Positions 8,676-41,363 of a stretch of 64,000 bases of DNA are shown one piece after another (position 1 is the stretch's first letter; each line of letters opens with the position of its first letter). Under the pieces are notes generated by a model. It worked only from the letters and a program-made list of their open reading frames with translations, ran no database searches and was not told the DNA's origin. Origin of the DNA: Escherichia coli (GTDB lineage: Bacteria > Pseudomonadota > Gammaproteobacteria > Enterobacterales > Enterobacteriaceae); the NCBI RefSeq assembly GCF_003334355.1, contig NZ_QOWP01000006.1; one strand, given 5' to 3'. A program made the translations under genes and the position numbers.

Positions 8676-10244
8676 GTGGACTGGCTTCTTGATGTTTTTG
8701 CTACCTGGCTCTACGGCTTAAAAGTAATCGCGATAACGTTAGCGGTCATCATGTTCATCAGCGGGCTGGACGATTTTTTTATTGATGTCGTCTACTGGGT
8801 ACGCCGCATTAAACGCAAGTTGAGTGTTTATCGCCGCTACCCGCGAATGAGTTACCGCGAACTGTATAAACCAGATGAAAAACCGTTAGCGATTATGGTT
8901 CCGGCATGGAATGAAACGGGCGTCATCGGCAATATGGCCGAGCTGGCGGCGACCACGCTCGACTACGAAAACTATCATATCTTTGTTGGCACCTACCCCA
9001 ACGACCCCGATACTCAGCGTGATGTTGACGAAGTGTGCGCTCGCTTCCCGAATGTGCATAAGGTAGTCTGCGCGCGTCCTGGCCCCACCAGCAAAGCCGA
9101 CTGTCTGAACAACGTGCTGGACGCCATCACCCAATTTGAGCGTAGCGCCAATTTCGCTTTTGCTGGTTTTATTCTGCATGACGCCGAAGATGTGATTTCA
9201 CCGATGGAATTGCGTCTGTTCAACTATCTGGTCGAGCGTAAAGATCTGATTCAGATCCCGGTGTATCCGTTCGAACGCGAATGGACGCACTTCACCAGCA
9301 TGACTTACATTGATGAGTTTTCAGAGCTGCATGGCAAAGATGTTCCGGTGCGTGAAGCCCTCGCCGGACAAGTGCCCAGCGCAGGCGTCGGCACCTGTTT
9401 CAGCCGCCGCGCCGTGACCGCTCTGTTAGCTGACGGTGACGGTATTGCTTTCGACGTGCAGAGTCTGACTGAAGATTACGACATTGGTTTCCGCCTGAAA
9501 GAGAAAGGTATGACGGAAATTTTTGTCCGTTTTCCGGTGGTGGACGAAGCCAAAGAACGCGAGCAGCGTAAATTTTTACAGCACGCACGGACGTCAAACA
9601 TGATCTGCGTGCGCGAATATTTCCCCGATACCTTTTCGACTGCAGTTCGACAAAAATCTCGCTGGATCATCGGCATTGTTTTCCAGGGCTTTAAAACCCA
9701 CAAATGGACCTCCAGCCTGACGCTGAACTACTTTCTCTGGCGCGACCGCAAAGGGGCAATCAGTAACTTTGTCAGCTTCCTCGCGATGCTGGTGATGCTC
9801 CAGCTTTTGCTGTTGCTGGCGTATGAAAGTTTGTGGCCCGATGCCTGGCATTTCCTTTCTATTTTTAGCGGCAGCGCATGGTTAATGACCCTGCTGTGGC
9901 TAAACTTTGGCTTGATGGTTAACCGCATCGTGCAGCGGGTGATTTTCGTCACTGGCTACTACGGTCTGACGCAGGGGCTGCTATCTGTCCTGCGTCTTTT
10001 CTGGGGCAACCTGATTAACTTTATGGCCAACTGGCGCGCGCTAAAACAGGTACTTCAACACGGCGATCCACGTCGCGTCGCGTGGGATAAAACAACGCAT
10101 GACTTCCCCAGCGTCACTGGCGATACCCGCTCGTTGCGCCCGTTAGGTCAAATTCTGCTGGAAAATCAGGTCATCACTGAAGAACAACTCGATACAGCAC
10201 TGCGTAATCGCGTCGAAGGTCTACGCCTGGGCGGTTCAATGTGA
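8676..10244 (+). CDS. nfrB: NfrB phage N4 adsorption protein B, glycosyltransferase/membrane portion (GTG start), truncated by frameshift
   Basis: 522-aa ORF matching NfrB N-terminal region from memory; stops at 10242-10244 while the remainder continues in the +2 frame. Confidence 0.85.
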   Translation: MDWLLDVFATWLYGLKVIAITLAVIMFISGLDDFFIDVVYWVRRIKRKLSVYRRYPRMSYRELYKPDEKPLAIMVPAWNETGVIGNMAELAATTLDYENYHIFVGTYPNDPDTQRDVDEVCARFPNVHKVVCARPGPTSKADCLNNVLDAITQFERSANFAFAGFILHDAEDVISPMELRLFNYLVERKDLIQIPVYPFEREWTHFTSMTYIDEFSELHGKDVPVREALAGQVPSAGVGTCFSRRAVTALLADGDGIAFDVQSLTEDYDIGFRLKEKGMTEIFVRFPVVDEAKEREQRKFLQHARTSNMICVREYFPDTFSTAVRQKSRWIIGIVFQGFKTHKWTSSLTLNYFLWRDRKGAISNFVSFLAMLVMLQLLLLLAYESLWPDAWHFLSIFSGSAWLMTLLWLNFGLMVNRIVQRVIFVTGYYGLTQGLLSVLRLFWGNLINFMANWRALKQVLQHGDPRRVAWDKTTHDFPSVTGDTRSLRPLGQILLENQVITEEQLDTALRNRVEGLRLGGSM

Positions 10245-10912
10245 TGCAGGGGCTGATTAGCGCCGAGCAGCTGGCACAGGCGCTGGCAGAGCAAAACGGC
10301 GTGGCGTGGGAATCCATCGATGCCTGGCAGATCCCTTCCTCGCTGATTGCCGAAATGCCGGCCTCCGTGGCGCTGCATTATGCAGTACTGCCGCTGCGTC
10401 TGGAAAATGATGAGTTAATTGTCGGCAGTGAAGATGGTATTGACCCTGTTTCGCTGGCGGCCCTGACGCGTAAAGTCGGACGCAAAGTGCGTTACGTCAT
10501 TGTTCTGCGGGGACAAATTGTCACGGGGTTACGTCACTGGTATGCACGCCGACGCGGTCACGATCCGCGGGCAATGTTGTACAATGCGGTTCAGCATCAG
10601 TGGCTCACGGAACAGCAGACCGGTGAAATCTGGCGGCAATATGTGCCGCATCAGTTCCTGTTCGCCGAAATACTGACCACGCTCGGTCATATTAATCGTT
10701 CAGCAATTAACGTGTTGTTATTGCGCCATGAACGCAGTTCTCTGCCGCTCGGCAAGTTTTTGGTCACCGAAGGCGTTATCAGCCAGGAAACGTTGGATCG
10801 CGTCCTGACAATTCAACGCGAATTACAAGTTTCGATGCAATCACTATTACTCAAAGCAGGTTTAAACACAGAACAGGTTGCGCAACTGGAGTCCGAAAAT
10901 GAAGGAGAATAA
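10241..10912 (+). CDS. nfrB: NfrB C-terminal MshEN-like domain, separated from the N-terminal part by frameshift
   Basis: 223-aa ORF overlapping the upstream ORF stop by 4 nt (ATGTGATG); 522+1+222 equals the recalled 745-aa NfrB. Confidence 0.8.
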   Translation: MMQGLISAEQLAQALAEQNGVAWESIDAWQIPSSLIAEMPASVALHYAVLPLRLENDELIVGSEDGIDPVSLAALTRKVGRKVRYVIVLRGQIVTGLRHWYARRRGHDPRAMLYNAVQHQWLTEQQTGEIWRQYVPHQFLFAEILTTLGHINRSAINVLLLRHERSSLPLGKFLVTEGVISQETLDRVLTIQRELQVSMQSLLLKAGLNTEQVAQLESENEGE

Positions 10913-13871
10913 CCTTAATCGCGTCATCGGATGGTCTGGTTTACTGCTGACGTCTTTATTGAGTACCAGCGCACTCGCAGACAATATCGGCACCAGCGCA
11001 GAAGAGCTGGGGCTGAGCGATTATCGCCATTTTGTTATTTATCCCCGTCTCGATAAGGCGCTGAAGGCACAGAAAAATAACGACGAAGCAACCGCCATCC
11101 GCGAATTTGAATATATACACCAGCAGGTGCCGGATAATATTCCGCTGACTTTATACCTTGCGGAAGCCTATCGCCATTTTGGTCATGATGACCGGGCGCG
11201 GCTGTTGCTGGAGGATCAACTGAAACGTCACCCAGGAGATGCCCGACTTGAGCGCAGTCTGGCGGCTATTCCAGTTGAAGTGAAAAGCGTTACGACTGTT
11301 GAAGAACTGCTTGCCCAGCAAAAAGCGTGCGATGCTGCGCCGACCCTGCGTTGTCGCAGTGAAGTCGGGCAGAATGCCCTGCGGCTGGCACAGTTACCTG
11401 TCGCCAGAGCGCAACTGAACGATGCGACGTTTGCTGCATCGCCGGAAGGAAAAACGCTGCGAACCGATCTGCTGCAACGGGCAATCTACCTGAAACAATG
11501 GTCCCAGGCAGATACGCTATACAATGAAGCACGCCAGCAGAACACATTAAGCGCGGCAGAACGCCGTCAGTGGTTTGACGTGCTTCTTGCCGGGCAGCTG
11601 GACGATCGGATCCTGGCACTGCAATCACAGGGGATCTTCACCGATCCTCAGTCATATATTACTTACGCGACCGCGCTGGCTTATCGTGGCGAAAAAGCAC
11701 GCCTCCAGCATTATCTCATTGAAAATAAGCCGCTGTTTACCACGGACGCACAAGAGAAAAGTTGGCTCTATCTGTTATCTAAATACAGCGCCAACCCCGT
11801 TCAGGCATTGGCGAATTATACGGTGCAGTTTGCCGATAACCGCCAGTATGTTGTTGGCGCGACGCTACCGGTGCTGTTAAAAGAAGGTCAGTACGACGCA
11901 GCGCAAAAACTGCTCGCCACCCTCCCCGCCAATGAAATGCTTGAGGAGCGTTATGCTGTCAGCGTGGCGACCCGTAACAAGGCTGAATCTCTGCGTCTGG
12001 CACGATTGCTGTATCAGCAAGAACCGGCAAATCTTACCCGCCTGGATCAACTGACCTGGCAACTGATGCAGAACGAGCAGTCACGCGAAGCTGCCGATTT
12101 ATTGCTGCAACGCTATCCTTTCCAGGGCGATGCGCGTGTCAGCCAGACTTTAATGGCGCGACTGGCGTCTCTGCTGGAAAGTCATCCTTACCTGGCAACT
12201 CCAGCGAAGGTGGCGATTTTATCAAAACCCTTGCCGCTGGCGGCGCAACGTCAGTGGCAAAGCCAGTTGCCGGGTATTGCAGATAATTGCCCGGCAATAG
12301 TTCGCTTGCTGGGCGATATGTCGCCTTCCTACGATGCCGCCGCCTGGAACCGTCTGGCAAAGTGTTATCGGGACACGCTACCCGGTGTGGCCTTGTATGC
12401 ATGGCTTCAGGCCGAACAACGACAACCGAACGCCTGGCAACATCGTGCGGTATCCTATCAGGCGTATCAGGTTGAGGACTACGCCACCGCACTGGCGGCC
12501 TGGCAGAAAATCAGTCTTCACGACATGAGCAATGAGGATCTGCTTGCTGCTGCCAATACCGCCCAGGCGGCAGGAAATGGTGCAGCTCGCGATCGCTGGC
12601 TACAACAGGCAGAACAACGTGGACTGGGAAACAATGCCCTCTACTGGTGGCTGCATGCGCAACGTTACATTCCTGGTCAGCCGGAACTCGCACTGAGCGA
12701 TCTCACGCGCTCAATCAATATTGCGCCTTCTGCCAACGCTTACGTTGCGCGGGCGACAATTTATCGCCAACGTCATAATGTCCCGGCGGCGGTGAGTGAT
12801 TTGCGCGCCGCGCTGGAACTGGAACCGAATAATAGCAACATCCAGGCAGCGCTTGGTTACGCCTTGTGGGATAGCGGTGATATCGCACAGTCGCGGGAAA
12901 TGCTCGAACAGGCGCATAAAGGGCTACCGGACGATCCGGCACTGATCCGACAACTGGCCTATGTGAACCAGCGTCTGGATGACATGCCTGCGACGCAGCA
13001 CTACGCCCGCCTGGTGATTGATGACATTGATAATCAGGCGCTGATAAACCCACTCACCCCAGAGCAAAATCAGCAACGCTTCAATTTCCGCCGTCTGCAT
13101 GAGGAGGTCGGTCGCCGCTGGACGTTCAGTTTCGATTCTTCTATCGGCTTGCGTTCCGGGGCAATGAGCACCGCTAACAATAATGTCGGCGGCGCAGCGC
13201 CAGGGAAAAGCTATCGTAGCTACGGGCAACTGGAAGCCGAGTACCGCATCGGACGCAATATGCTGCTGGAAGGCGACCTGCTCTCAGTTTATAGCCGCGT
13301 CTTTGCCGATACCGGAGAAAACGGGGTGATGATGCCGGTGAAAAATCCGATGTCCGGCACCGGTCTACGCTGGAAGCCGCTGCGCGATCAGATCTTTTTC
13401 CTCGCCGTCGAACAGCAGTTGCCGCTGAACGGGCAAAATGGCGCATCCGATACCATGCTGCGCGCCAGCGCCTCATTCTTTAATGGCGGCAAATACAGCG
13501 ACGAATGGCACCCGAACGGTTCAGGCTGGTTTGCCCAAAACCTGTACCTCGATGCGGCGCAATATATCCGCCAGGATATTCAGGCGTGGACGGCAGATTA
13601 TCGCGTCAGCTGGCATCAGAAGGTAGCTAACGGACAGACTATTGAGCCTTACGCTCACGTTCAGGACAACGGCTATCGTGATAAAGGCACTCAGGGCGCG
13701 CAGCTTGGCGGTGTCGGGGTCCGCTGGAATATCTGGACCGGCGAGACGCACTACGACGCCTGGCCGCACAAAGTCAGTCTCGGCGTCGAGTATCAACATA
13801 CCTTTAAGGCGATTAATCAACGTAACGGAGAGCGCAACAACGCGTTTCTCACCATTGGAGTGCACTGGTAA
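10899..13871 (+). CDS. nfrA: NfrA outer-membrane phage N4 receptor (TPR-containing)
   Basis: Long ORF, MKENNLNRVIGWSGLL start, signal peptide, overlaps nfrB end as in K-12. Confidence 0.9.
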   Translation: MKENNLNRVIGWSGLLLTSLLSTSALADNIGTSAEELGLSDYRHFVIYPRLDKALKAQKNNDEATAIREFEYIHQQVPDNIPLTLYLAEAYRHFGHDDRARLLLEDQLKRHPGDARLERSLAAIPVEVKSVTTVEELLAQQKACDAAPTLRCRSEVGQNALRLAQLPVARAQLNDATFAASPEGKTLRTDLLQRAIYLKQWSQADTLYNEARQQNTLSAAERRQWFDVLLAGQLDDRILALQSQGIFTDPQSYITYATALAYRGEKARLQHYLIENKPLFTTDAQEKSWLYLLSKYSANPVQALANYTVQFADNRQYVVGATLPVLLKEGQYDAAQKLLATLPANEMLEERYAVSVATRNKAESLRLARLLYQQEPANLTRLDQLTWQLMQNEQSREAADLLLQRYPFQGDARVSQTLMARLASLLESHPYLATPAKVAILSKPLPLAAQRQWQSQLPGIADNCPAIVRLLGDMSPSYDAAAWNRLAKCYRDTLPGVALYAWLQAEQRQPNAWQHRAVSYQAYQVEDYATALAAWQKISLHDMSNEDLLAAANTAQAAGNGAARDRWLQQAEQRGLGNNALYWWLHAQRYIPGQPELALSDLTRSINIAPSANAYVARATIYRQRHNVPAAVSDLRAALELEPNNSNIQAALGYALWDSGDIAQSREMLEQAHKGLPDDPALIRQLAYVNQRLDDMPATQHYARLVIDDIDNQALINPLTPEQNQQRFNFRRLHEEVGRRWTFSFDSSIGLRSGAMSTANNNVGGAAPGKSYRSYGQLEAEYRIGRNMLLEGDLLSVYSRVFADTGENGVMMPVKNPMSGTGLRWKPLRDQIFFLAVEQQLPLNGQNGASDTMLRASASFFNGGKYSDEWHPNGSGWFAQNLYLDAAQYIRQDIQAWTADYRVSWHQKVANGQTIEPYAHVQDNGYRDKGTQGAQLGGVGVRWNIWTGETHYDAWPHKVSLGVEYQHTFKAINQRNGERNNAFLTIGVHW

Positions 13872-14762
13872 ATGCGTAAGTTCATTTTCGTATTGCTGAC
13901 ACTGCTTTTGGTCAGCCCTTTTTCCTTTGCGATGAAAGGTATTATCTGGCAACCACAAAACCGTGATAGTCAGGTTACCGATACCCAGTGGCAGGGGCTG
14001 ATGAGTCAGTTACGTTTGCAAGGCTTCGATACCCTGGTTTTGCAATGGACCCGTTACGGCGATGCATTCACCCAGCCAGAACAGCGCGCGTTATTGTTTA
14101 AGCGGGCCGCAGCTGCGCAACAGGCTGGCCTGAAGCTGATTGTCGGGCTGAACGCCGATCCGGAATTTTTTATGCACCAGAAACAGTCGTCCGCAGCGCT
14201 GGAAAGCTATCTTAATCGCCTGCTGGCTGCCGATCTCCAGCAAGCCAGATTATGGAGCGCCGCGCCTGGCGTAACGCCGGATGGCTGGTACATCAGCGCG
14301 GAAATTGACGACCTGAACTGGCGCAGCGAAGCCGCCCGTCAGCCTTTGCTAACATGGTTAAACAACGAGCAGCGGCTGATTAGCGATGTTTCAGCAAAAC
14401 CGGTTTATATCAGTAGTTTTTTCGCCGGAAACATGTCGCCCGATGGCTATCGCCAACTGCTGGAACACGTTAAAGCAACCGGCGTTAATGTCTGGGTACA
14501 GGATGGCAGCGGCGTGGATAAACTTACCGCTGAACAGCGTGAACGTTATCTACAGGCCAGCGCCGATTGCCAAAGCTCCGCCCCAGCAAGCGGCATTGTT
14601 TATGAACTGTTTGTCGCCGGCAAAGGCAAAACCTTTACAGCGAAACCGAAACCGGACGCAGAAATTGCCTCGCTGTTAGCGAAACGTTCCTCTTGCGGTA
14701 AAGACACTCTCTATTTCTCTCTGCGCTATTTGCCCGTCGCGCACGGCATTCTCGAGTATTAA
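13872..14762 (+). CDS. ybcH: YbcH family exported protein
   Basis: 296-aa ORF with signal peptide immediately after nfrA; synteny. Confidence 0.75.
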   Translation: MRKFIFVLLTLLLVSPFSFAMKGIIWQPQNRDSQVTDTQWQGLMSQLRLQGFDTLVLQWTRYGDAFTQPEQRALLFKRAAAAQQAGLKLIVGLNADPEFFMHQKQSSAALESYLNRLLAADLQQARLWSAAPGVTPDGWYISAEIDDLNWRSEAARQPLLTWLNNEQRLISDVSAKPVYISSFFAGNMSPDGYRQLLEHVKATGVNVWVQDGSGVDKLTAEQRERYLQASADCQSSAPASGIVYELFVAGKGKTFTAKPKPDAEIASLLAKRSSCGKDTLYFSLRYLPVAHGILEY

Positions 14763-20891: not shown

Positions 20892-21584
20892 TTAGTTTAA
20901 GTTCACTTCTCTGACCGGGGTTACTGAACCATAATCATTAACGGTCTGAAATTTCAGCTTTCCCTGCACTCCTGAGGGTAAGGGAATTTGTGAATTAACT
21001 CTGGGTGCAGCCATAGCATTCCCCAACTTTTGGTTGCCCACTTGTAAGTTAACCAGAGTGACATAAAAAGGTGAGGGATTATGAACATTGATATAGTTAC
21101 CGGATCGCGAAAACTTGAGTGTGTCCGGTGCTTCTGCGGGTAATTCTTGTAATTGAATTAGACGGAGAAATAATTTCATGCGCGATAAAATCGCCAGTTG
21201 CAAAACATTCCTGCCGTTCAATGCATTTTTATCTACCGAAGGGATCGTCTTAACATTCATCCAGAACAGAGACTCACGATCTGCTGCCAGCGGTGGACCG
21301 GTGTAAATAATACGCAAGGTATTTTCGCTTTTGGGTTCACTAACAAACAGTGGCGGTGTAATGATGAATGACTTTTCTTTTACACCGCTGCTGTTTTCAA
21401 TCCACGAATTGACCAGAAAGCGCTCATTGGTATGGCTATTTCTAATCCATACCGCAGTCTGTTTAGCATCAGCGGGATAAATAATACGCGTGGCACCTAA
21501 TGCGATCCCTCCGGCAGCATGGGCGCTGGCCGAAATGATTAAATAAAATATAATGAGCATCAATAACTTTATTTTAGTCATCAT
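20892..21584 (-). CDS. sfmC: SfmC periplasmic fimbrial chaperone
   Basis: 230-aa ORF with signal peptide and PapD-like features. Confidence 0.85.
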
Positions 21585-40001: not shown

Positions 40002-41363
40002 TTACTGCTGATGTTTAAGGATAAATTGACCTTTCGGCGCAACAGGGAAGCCCTGTTCAATGTCGTAAATCACATCACCACGTAAGATGGTTTTCGTGAT
40101 ACGCGCGCCAATGGTACGGCCAACATACGGGCTGACTTTGTGGCGATATTCCAGATCGTCATTGGTAAGAACATAGCTGCTATTCGGCTGAATGAAGACG
40201 AAGTCGGCATCTTTTCCTGGGGCGATACGGCCTTTTTGCTGCAGACCGAAAATATCTGCTGCGTTAGTCGCCATTAATTTGCCGAACATTGGCAGAGACA
40301 TTCCGCGTTTCTGTACCGCTTCATCGAACATCACGTCCATACAGTTTTGCAGACCGGCAATACCGCCCCATGCTTCCATGATGTTGCCGGCTTTCATTTC
40401 CGGAGGGCATGGTGAGTGGTCGGAAACCAGGCAGTCGATTTCACCGTTAAACAGTTTTTCCCACATGCCTTTCTGGTTTTCCAGATCGCGGATCGGCGGT
40501 GAACACTTCGCCAGAGTACCGATTTCTTCGAACTGATCGGTATCCAGTACAAAGTAATGCGGGCAGAATTCACAAGTAACATCCTGACCTTCCTGACGTG
40601 CACGAATCACTTCTTCAACACCTTCTGGGCTGCTGATATGGCAAATGTGCAGACGGCAACCGGCAACTTTCGCCAGGTACAGTACGCGGCGAATCGCTTC
40701 CATTTCGGTAAATACCGGACGCGAAGCCACATAGTCATGGGCAGTTACACGACCTTCACTTTTCGCTTCTTCGCCCAGTGCATCACAGATCAGCGCGTTT
40801 TCGCAGTGCACCAGCACCGGCTGCCCCAGTTCGCCCAGCTTCTGCGCACCTTTGAAGAACTGCCAGTCGTTTACATCACGGAAGTCGTTGTCGATACCGC
40901 GATCGCCACAGGTCGCAACGAAGCATTTGAAGCCGACAACGCCCACTTCATCCAACTCATGCAGACGATCAATGTTGTAAGACACCAGGCCACCGAGTTG
41001 TGCCGCATCGATAGTCAGCTTGCCTTTAGCGGCATCGAACTTCAGTTCAATTGAAGCACGGTCAACCGTTGCAGGCAGCTGGTTGAGCGGCATTTCGATC
41101 ATGGTGGTGATACCACCTTTTGCCGCTGCGCGAGTACCGGTTTCATAACCTTCCCAGTGGCTACGACCCGGTTCAGAAATATGGGTGTGCGCATCAACCA
41201 TGCCCGGCGAAACCACCAGACCAGACGCATCCATAACTTCTTTTGCATCGCCCAGATCCTGACCGATAGCAGCAATTTTTCCGCCTTTAACGGCGATATC
41301 TACAACGCGAGCTTCGTTTTCTAAAATAACGGTGCCGTTTTTAATGATTAAATCAAAAGACAT
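40002..41363 (-). CDS. allB: allantoinase
   Basis: 453 aa amidohydrolase (DAHTH metal-binding motif). Confidence 0.9.

Follow-up and report, generated by a model that had tools for sequence, protein, structure and literature searches.

In the window, that is, the whole stretch of 64,000 nucleotides of Escherichia coli DNA analysed here, the gene nfrB, for the c-di-GMP-activated ManNAc-polymer synthase NfrB, has very probably (at a probability of about 0.85) been turned into a pseudogene by a genuine, vertically inherited deletion of a single base, which marks one small E. coli lineage. The lesion is a rare, lineage-specific pseudogene of a well-known kind, and the identical allele is already flagged in RefSeq annotation.

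The missing base

The lesion lies at positions 10236-10247 of the window (TCAATGTGATGC), where two open reading frames of the forward strand meet. ORF1 (8676-10244, +) encodes 522 amino acids with the C-terminus ..LRLGGSM and closes with a TGA stop at 10242-10244. ORF2 (+), offset from it by +2, which is equivalent to -1, encodes 223 amino acids from a GTG at 10241 or 222 from an ATG at 10244, and ends at 10912. The NfrB equivalog model NF008411 is matched by ORF1 over profile positions 1-516 (E = 0) and by ORF2 over positions 517-722 (E = 2.9e-81), so that the two frames, which cover consecutive parts of the model, are to be regarded as the two halves of nfrB and not as a chance pair of ORFs. 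When positions 8600-10950 are compared with E. coli ATCC 8739 (2,351 bases aligned), the sole difference is one C, absent between 10241 and 10242 (+): the wild type reads ATGCTGATG where the window has ATGTGATG, which at the lesion itself amounts to ..TCAATGCTGATGCAG.. against ..TCAATGTGATGCAG.. The lost base, in a non-homopolymer context, is C1567 of nfrB, the first letter of a CTG (Leu) codon, and on translation from the normal start the TGA stop follows the deletion directly, right after Met522. ORF1, the missing leucine and ORF2 from M524 give, residue for residue, the wild-type 745-aa protein WP_000383946.1.

These comparisons bear out the original prediction of an nfrB gene split by a single-base frameshift, the identity of the gene being settled by the model matches of both ORFs together with the repaired product, the split by the one-base difference from ATCC 8739, and the expected length of 745 residues by the repaired protein. 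The proposed repair stood in that one base restores the full length, but the base is a C (CTG) and not a T; the residue is leucine either way.

The 5′ fragment (8676-10244, +; 522 residues and the TGA stop), delimited by its ORF, its NF008411 match and its repair to wild type, holds the GT2 glycosyltransferase domain, the membrane region and the first c-di-GMP motif (R488 onwards, with L490 and G491), and it extends six residues (RLGGSM) into the second. All of the processive GT2 signatures, DxD, TED and QxxRW, fall within ORF1, as D169 (HDAED), T265-E266-D267 and Q326-K-S-R-W330, and the Pfam families PF13632 and PF13641 are matched in this part; the roles of the NfrB residues are drawn from PMC8669469 and PMC8669472. 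The 3′ fragment (from ATG 10244, 222 aa, or GTG 10241, 223 aa, to 10912, +), likewise defined by ORF and NF008411 match, carries the second motif on from M524 to Q540 and continues through the Pfam MshEN core (542-628) to the end of the C-terminal region. In relation to E. coli NfrB, the cyclic di-GMP-activated glycosyltransferase described by NF008411 and WP_000383946.1, the DNA of the window is 100% identical save for the missing C, and the operon nfrB-nfrA-ybcH, the 14-nt overlap of nfrB with nfrA and the catalytic signatures are the same, whereas in the window codon 522 is the last before the frame breaks. The curated cut-off of NF008411 for the whole protein is 1170 bits; the repaired protein, as that of ATCC 8739, reaches 1332.2, ORF1 1036.3 and ORF2 273.9, and since both fragments stay below the cut-off, the locus is nfrB by descent while neither of its products qualifies as NfrB.

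A break inside the c-di-GMP-binding motif pair

MshEN domains bind c-di-GMP via a tandem pair of 24-residue motifs (PMC8669469), which in NfrB comprises residues 489-540 (window 10140-10294, +), as delimited by the motif model NF053729 and by alignment with MshEN domains. With a cut-off of 38 bits, NF053729 matches intact NfrB at residues 489-540 over its full profile (1-53 of 53, 66.2 bits), and on ORF1 just profile positions 1-32 of 53 are left, at 28.9 bits, below the cut-off. The residues around the break read R488-PLGQILLENQVITEEQLDTALRN.., then R517-LGGSM / LMQGLISAEQLAQALAEQ540, the slash marking the point at which the chain ends, after residue six of the second 24-residue motif. In the window, therefore, the glycosyltransferase no longer shares its polypeptide with a complete MshEN motif pair, the chain ending at 522.

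In the original prediction, the break separated the glycosyltransferase and membrane part from an MshEN-like domain. This placement proved wrong: the break lies after residue 522, inside the motif pair recognised by NF053729. The Pfam MshEN model spans the later part alone (residues 542-628), which is probably why the break resembled a domain boundary. Residues 487-625 of NfrB align across both motifs with the solved MshEN domains of PilF, PilB and MshE, and the likeness to the receptors MshE of V. cholerae (5HTL) and PilF of T. thermophilus (6F8L) thus includes both 24-residue motifs; unlike in these two, the second motif in the window is shared out between two polypeptides. As regards the further suggestion of a separately translated C-terminal domain, a break within the tandem motif means that ORF2 is not a complete, separately encoded MshEN domain.

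A second match to NF053729, also above the cut-off (48.5 bits), is found at window positions 10667-10816 (NfrB 665-714, LPLGKFLVTEGVISQETLDRVLTIQ..), in the C-terminal region of NfrB that Sellner et al. regard as a domain of unknown function (PMC8669472). PGAP labels C-terminal NfrB fragments as 'cyclic di-GMP-binding domain-containing protein, MshE-related'. A PADLOC scan for defence systems gave nothing meaningful for ORF2 (E = 0.0067).

Occurrence and inheritance of the deletion

Of 5,426 complete E. coli genomes, 5,047 contain the stretch covered by a 90-base query centred on the lesion. In one of them, strain PSS-12, it is identical to the window, and the other 5,046 are without the deletion; among the matches listed, all non-identical genomes align full-length over one extra base. 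A two-ORF structure is therefore not the normal state of nfrB, and the premature stop of the window stands against an intact ancestral state in its relatives.

PSS-12 (NZ_AP027697.1) comes from human faeces in Ecuador, and its locus AABK13_RS08430 is annotated by PGAP as an nrfB pseudogene, 'frameshifted'. Its deletion and its nfrB sequence are identical to those of the window and the surrounding 50 kb are colinear, but over these 50 kb the two differ by 28 SNPs, mostly transitions, with no indels and with 3 of the SNPs in nfrA, so that the window belongs to a different, sister strain within that lineage and is not simply the PSS-12 genome. An exact look-up of the 522-aa protein revealed the same deletion in the draft genome GCA_003293365.1 (L005) and in run ERR10677920 as assembled by Logan (L006). 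Among the matches listed for this protein, the true deletion alleles are L004-L006; within the 11 contigs with the exact protein, L007-L011 are wild-type contigs that end at nt 1567, one base past codon 522, so that the length of 522 aa of their partial product is a coincidence, and they carry no deletion. At least four distinct genomes thus carry the allele, with differing patterns of SNPs in nfrA. With the ancestral state of these SNPs taken from ATCC 8739, two sub-branches can be told apart, the window with GCA_003293365.1 and PSS-12 with ERR10677920, and the deletion has been passed down in a small clade whose members have diverged since. When JGI metagenome contigs were scanned for exact matches to the junction left by the deletion, 0 were found, which fits a rare allele.

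Expected consequences

The product of ORF1 keeps the full GT2 domain and the membrane segments, with an incomplete c-di-GMP site. From published work it is known that infection by phage N4 needs both the glycosyltransferase activity and the c-di-GMP binding of NfrB (PMC8669469, PMC8669472), and that purified NfrB 414-745 binds c-di-GMP (PMC8669469). Plating of N4 is lowered by L490A and L490A/L537A and almost abolished by G491L (PMC8669469), and in the other study N4 killing is abolished by G491L and partly by G519S (PMC8669472); the residue numbering of both papers agrees with the NfrB sequence derived from the window. Loss of nfrB function is predicted here on the basis of these mutational data. 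The truncated protein would not be switched on by the c-di-GMP made by DgcJ, the ManNAc-based glycan that serves as N4 receptor would then not be made, and N4-like phages would be unable to adsorb. A loss of c-di-GMP activation, an absent receptor glycan and resistance to N4-like phages are, by analogy with the mutants described, the most likely outcome. Where the stop codon of ORF1 overlaps the ATG of ORF2, reinitiation may yield a 222-aa C-terminal fragment; it would have neither motif 1 nor the beginning of motif 2 and is probably functionless.

In practical terms, the allele predicts a lineage that lacks the N4 glycan receptor and is resistant to N4-like (Schitoviridae) phages, which bears on the choice of phages against strains of this kind. 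Otherwise the lesion would have little importance beyond the annotation of the strain, as one more case of the known, recurrent natural inactivation of nfrB. With its break inside the c-di-GMP motif and all codons but one kept, it could also be a handy natural allele for testing glycosyltransferase activity free of the regulatory domain.

Alternative readings

A different reading of the locus would be that of a functional split, where ORF2 is made by termination-reinitiation and the two halves reassemble, or where ORF1 alone acts as a c-di-GMP-independent synthase. The stop of ORF1 and the start of ORF2 do overlap by one base (TGATG), and the GGGCGG upstream of them, which resembles an SD sequence, has a predicted anti-SD duplex of -6.4 kcal/mol that compares well with those of the nfrA (-5.9) and nfrB (-3.9) starts. 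A fused MshEN domain is present in 1,705 of 1,841 NfrB homologues and absent from the other 136 (PMC8669469), and short models of the NF011305 type, of about 486 aa and without an MshEN domain, match NfrB residues 17-481 alone; since such homologues exist, a glycosyltransferase without the domain is not necessarily dead. The intact state of nfrA and ybcH and the persistence of the allele while the clade diversified would also be in keeping with a retained function. However, the cut falls within a 24-residue binding motif, away from any domain boundary; single substitutions in the motif unit are already enough to destroy or lower function (PMC8669472, PMC8669469); conservation is lacking, with the arrangement found in that single complete genome of the 5,047; and other natural nfrB alleles are plainly destructive. 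A functional split is thus unlikely.

The same elements can be read more boldly, as an allele that is not null, with TGATG coupling the translation of the 222-aa protein, and with either a reassembly of the halves or a 522-aa enzyme that has become independent of DgcJ and c-di-GMP. The 222-aa protein still bears a second MshEN-like motif (NfrB residues 665-714), and such an allele would be a natural experiment in uncoupling exopolysaccharide synthesis from local second-messenger control. We consider this improbable.

A sequencing or assembly error, with the C retained in the true genome, would have in its favour that single-base indels are the commonest assembly error and that a second disrupted gene, encoding an Rhs protein, lies 7 kb upstream. 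The Rhs lesion is, however, a 67-nt deletion between 9-nt direct repeats and no indel error of this sort. The nfrB deletion is identical in four genomes that differ by SNPs and come from independent assemblies, one of them a draft and another built separately from public raw reads, and this agreement, together with the non-homopolymer context, makes an assembly artefact very unlikely.

Even less credible is a programmed -1 ribosomal frameshift, or another form of recoding, that would yield full-length NfrB. Within their overlap, a -1 shift would indeed rejoin the two frames, but the stretch over which they can be joined (37 nt, 10208-10244) holds neither an X XXY YYZ heptamer nor a homopolymer run of 4 or more, and 5,046 of 5,047 genomes have the orthologue in frame; neither a slippery site in the overlap nor a conserved arrangement, seen in 1 of the 5,047, was found. 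Naturally separate GT and MshEN genes are not supported, the orthologues being fused in complete E. coli genomes and in most of the homologues counted above, and the split lying inside a motif and not at a domain boundary.

The downstream genes of the operon

The other two genes of the operon are intact. The 990-aa product of nfrA (10899-13871, +; identified by ORF and comparison) is the outer-membrane export pore and phage adsorption protein, and the gene shares its first 14 nt with the end of nfrB; ybcH (13872-14762, +; 296 aa, DUF4434), defined in the same way, is the third gene. The context expected of NfrB, the operon nfrB-nfrA-ybcH (described in PMC8669469) with its 14-nt overlap, is thus the one found. 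Translation of the mutant nfrB stops 655 nt upstream of the nfrA start, and expression of nfrA and ybcH may drop through polarity. A scan of positions 8300-11100 for promoters and terminators gave nothing above shuffled expectation.

Across the four deletion-carrying genomes, nfrA shows 3 synonymous SNPs and 1 non-synonymous SNP, and no decay of nfrA or ybcH was seen. Relaxed selection on nfrA after the loss of nfrB was considered and leaves no signal, there being merely 4 SNPs, 3 of them synonymous. The intact state of both genes may mean either that the operon was lost just recently or that some function is retained.

Natural loss of nfrB and the question of selection

Natural lesions of nfrB are frequent and independent of one another. 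Those found besides the deletion comprise three nonsense alleles, a +A frameshift, an in-frame deletion of 276 nt, a deletion that fuses an Rhs gene to nfrB, and insertions of Mu, IS903 and IS3, and in 396 of the 5,426 complete genomes the nfrB query stretch finds no contiguous match over 80% or more of its length. Sellner et al. reported some strains in which nfrB or dgcJ carries an insertion, a deletion or a premature stop, and suggested fitness costs (PMC8669472). Genome-wide screens place nfrA and nfrB at the top of the loci for N4 resistance, and BL21 is devoid of the receptors (PMC7553319). In comparison with N4-resistant nfr mutants, E. coli B and the other natural lesions (PMC8669472), the allele of the window affects the same gene with the same expected outcome, a missing N4 glycan receptor and resistance to N4, but differs from other loss-of-function alleles in keeping all codons but one.

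The original prediction had raised the possibility of a phage-selected lesion, which is plausible. The Nfr polysaccharide can impede motility (PMC8669469), and drift or such a cost of the polysaccharide would explain the lesion equally well. More generally, the recurrent loss of nfrB is consistent with phage pressure, and equally with a cost of the glycan or with drift.

Other features of the lesion site

Several other peculiarities of nfrB lie at or near the position of the lost base. A near-identical 15-nt direct repeat occurs at 9966-9980 (CTGACGCAGGGGCTG) and at 10241-10255 (wild type, CTGATGCAGGGGCTG), and it is with the lost C that the second copy begins. In strain F163 (NZ_OY754349.1), an in-frame deletion of 276 nt (92 codons) lies between the two copies, and the product is a 653-aa 'glycosyl transferase family protein' without the first c-di-GMP motif. 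CP090305.1 carries in nfrB, at the window equivalent of 10233-10241, an IS903-type element of 1,057 bp with the ends GGCTTTGTTGAATAAATC, whose 9-bp target duplication GGTTCAATG stops one base short of the C that is lost in the window. An IS footprint was considered as the origin of the deletion and discarded, as the loss of 1 nt is no recognised excision scar and nothing ties the IS903 of CP090305.1 to the deletion.

A hot spot of contig breaks is also found at window positions 10241-10246 (nfrB nt 1567-1571; L007-L011 and L022-L025). The five independent wild-type contigs L007-L011, from three gut metagenomes, one draft genome and one Logan assembly, end exactly at nt 1567 (..TCAATGC) with no foreign bases, and at least 24 other contigs begin at nfrB nt 1571/1572 (TGCAGGGG..). 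The loss of the C, losses of 3 or 6 nt, the F163 deletion and an IS insertion with target duplication were each tried as models, and none fits both ends, which points to some further common variant, or else to a systematic effect of assembly, at this spot.

Wider window and sister strain

Upstream of the operon, the gene for an Rhs core protein (1274-5724), itself downstream of VgrG and of a DcrB-like gene, is broken into ORFs at 1274-3391 and 3352-5724. In comparison with ATCC 8739 its 67-nt deletion lies between 9-nt direct repeats (GCCGGACGG), and it is common to the window and to PSS-12, where the gene is annotated as 'frameshifted'. A transposase gene of the ISAs1 family (H-repeat, 7269-8405) is located 270 bp upstream of nfrB, at a place occupied by cusS in K-12-like genomes, and 7 of the 28 SNPs that separate the window from PSS-12 fall within 133 bp (8039-8171) of this ISAs1 copy, which looks like gene conversion between IS copies. 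A fimbrial chaperone gene (sfmC/fimC-like, 20892-21584, -) is intact in the window, and that of PSS-12 has an internal stop at codon 129, due to one of the SNPs at 21200 and 21455. Finally, four SNPs relative to PSS-12 are concentrated in 183 bp of allB (40567-40749), against a background of about 0.4 per kb, and probably represent a small recombination patch.
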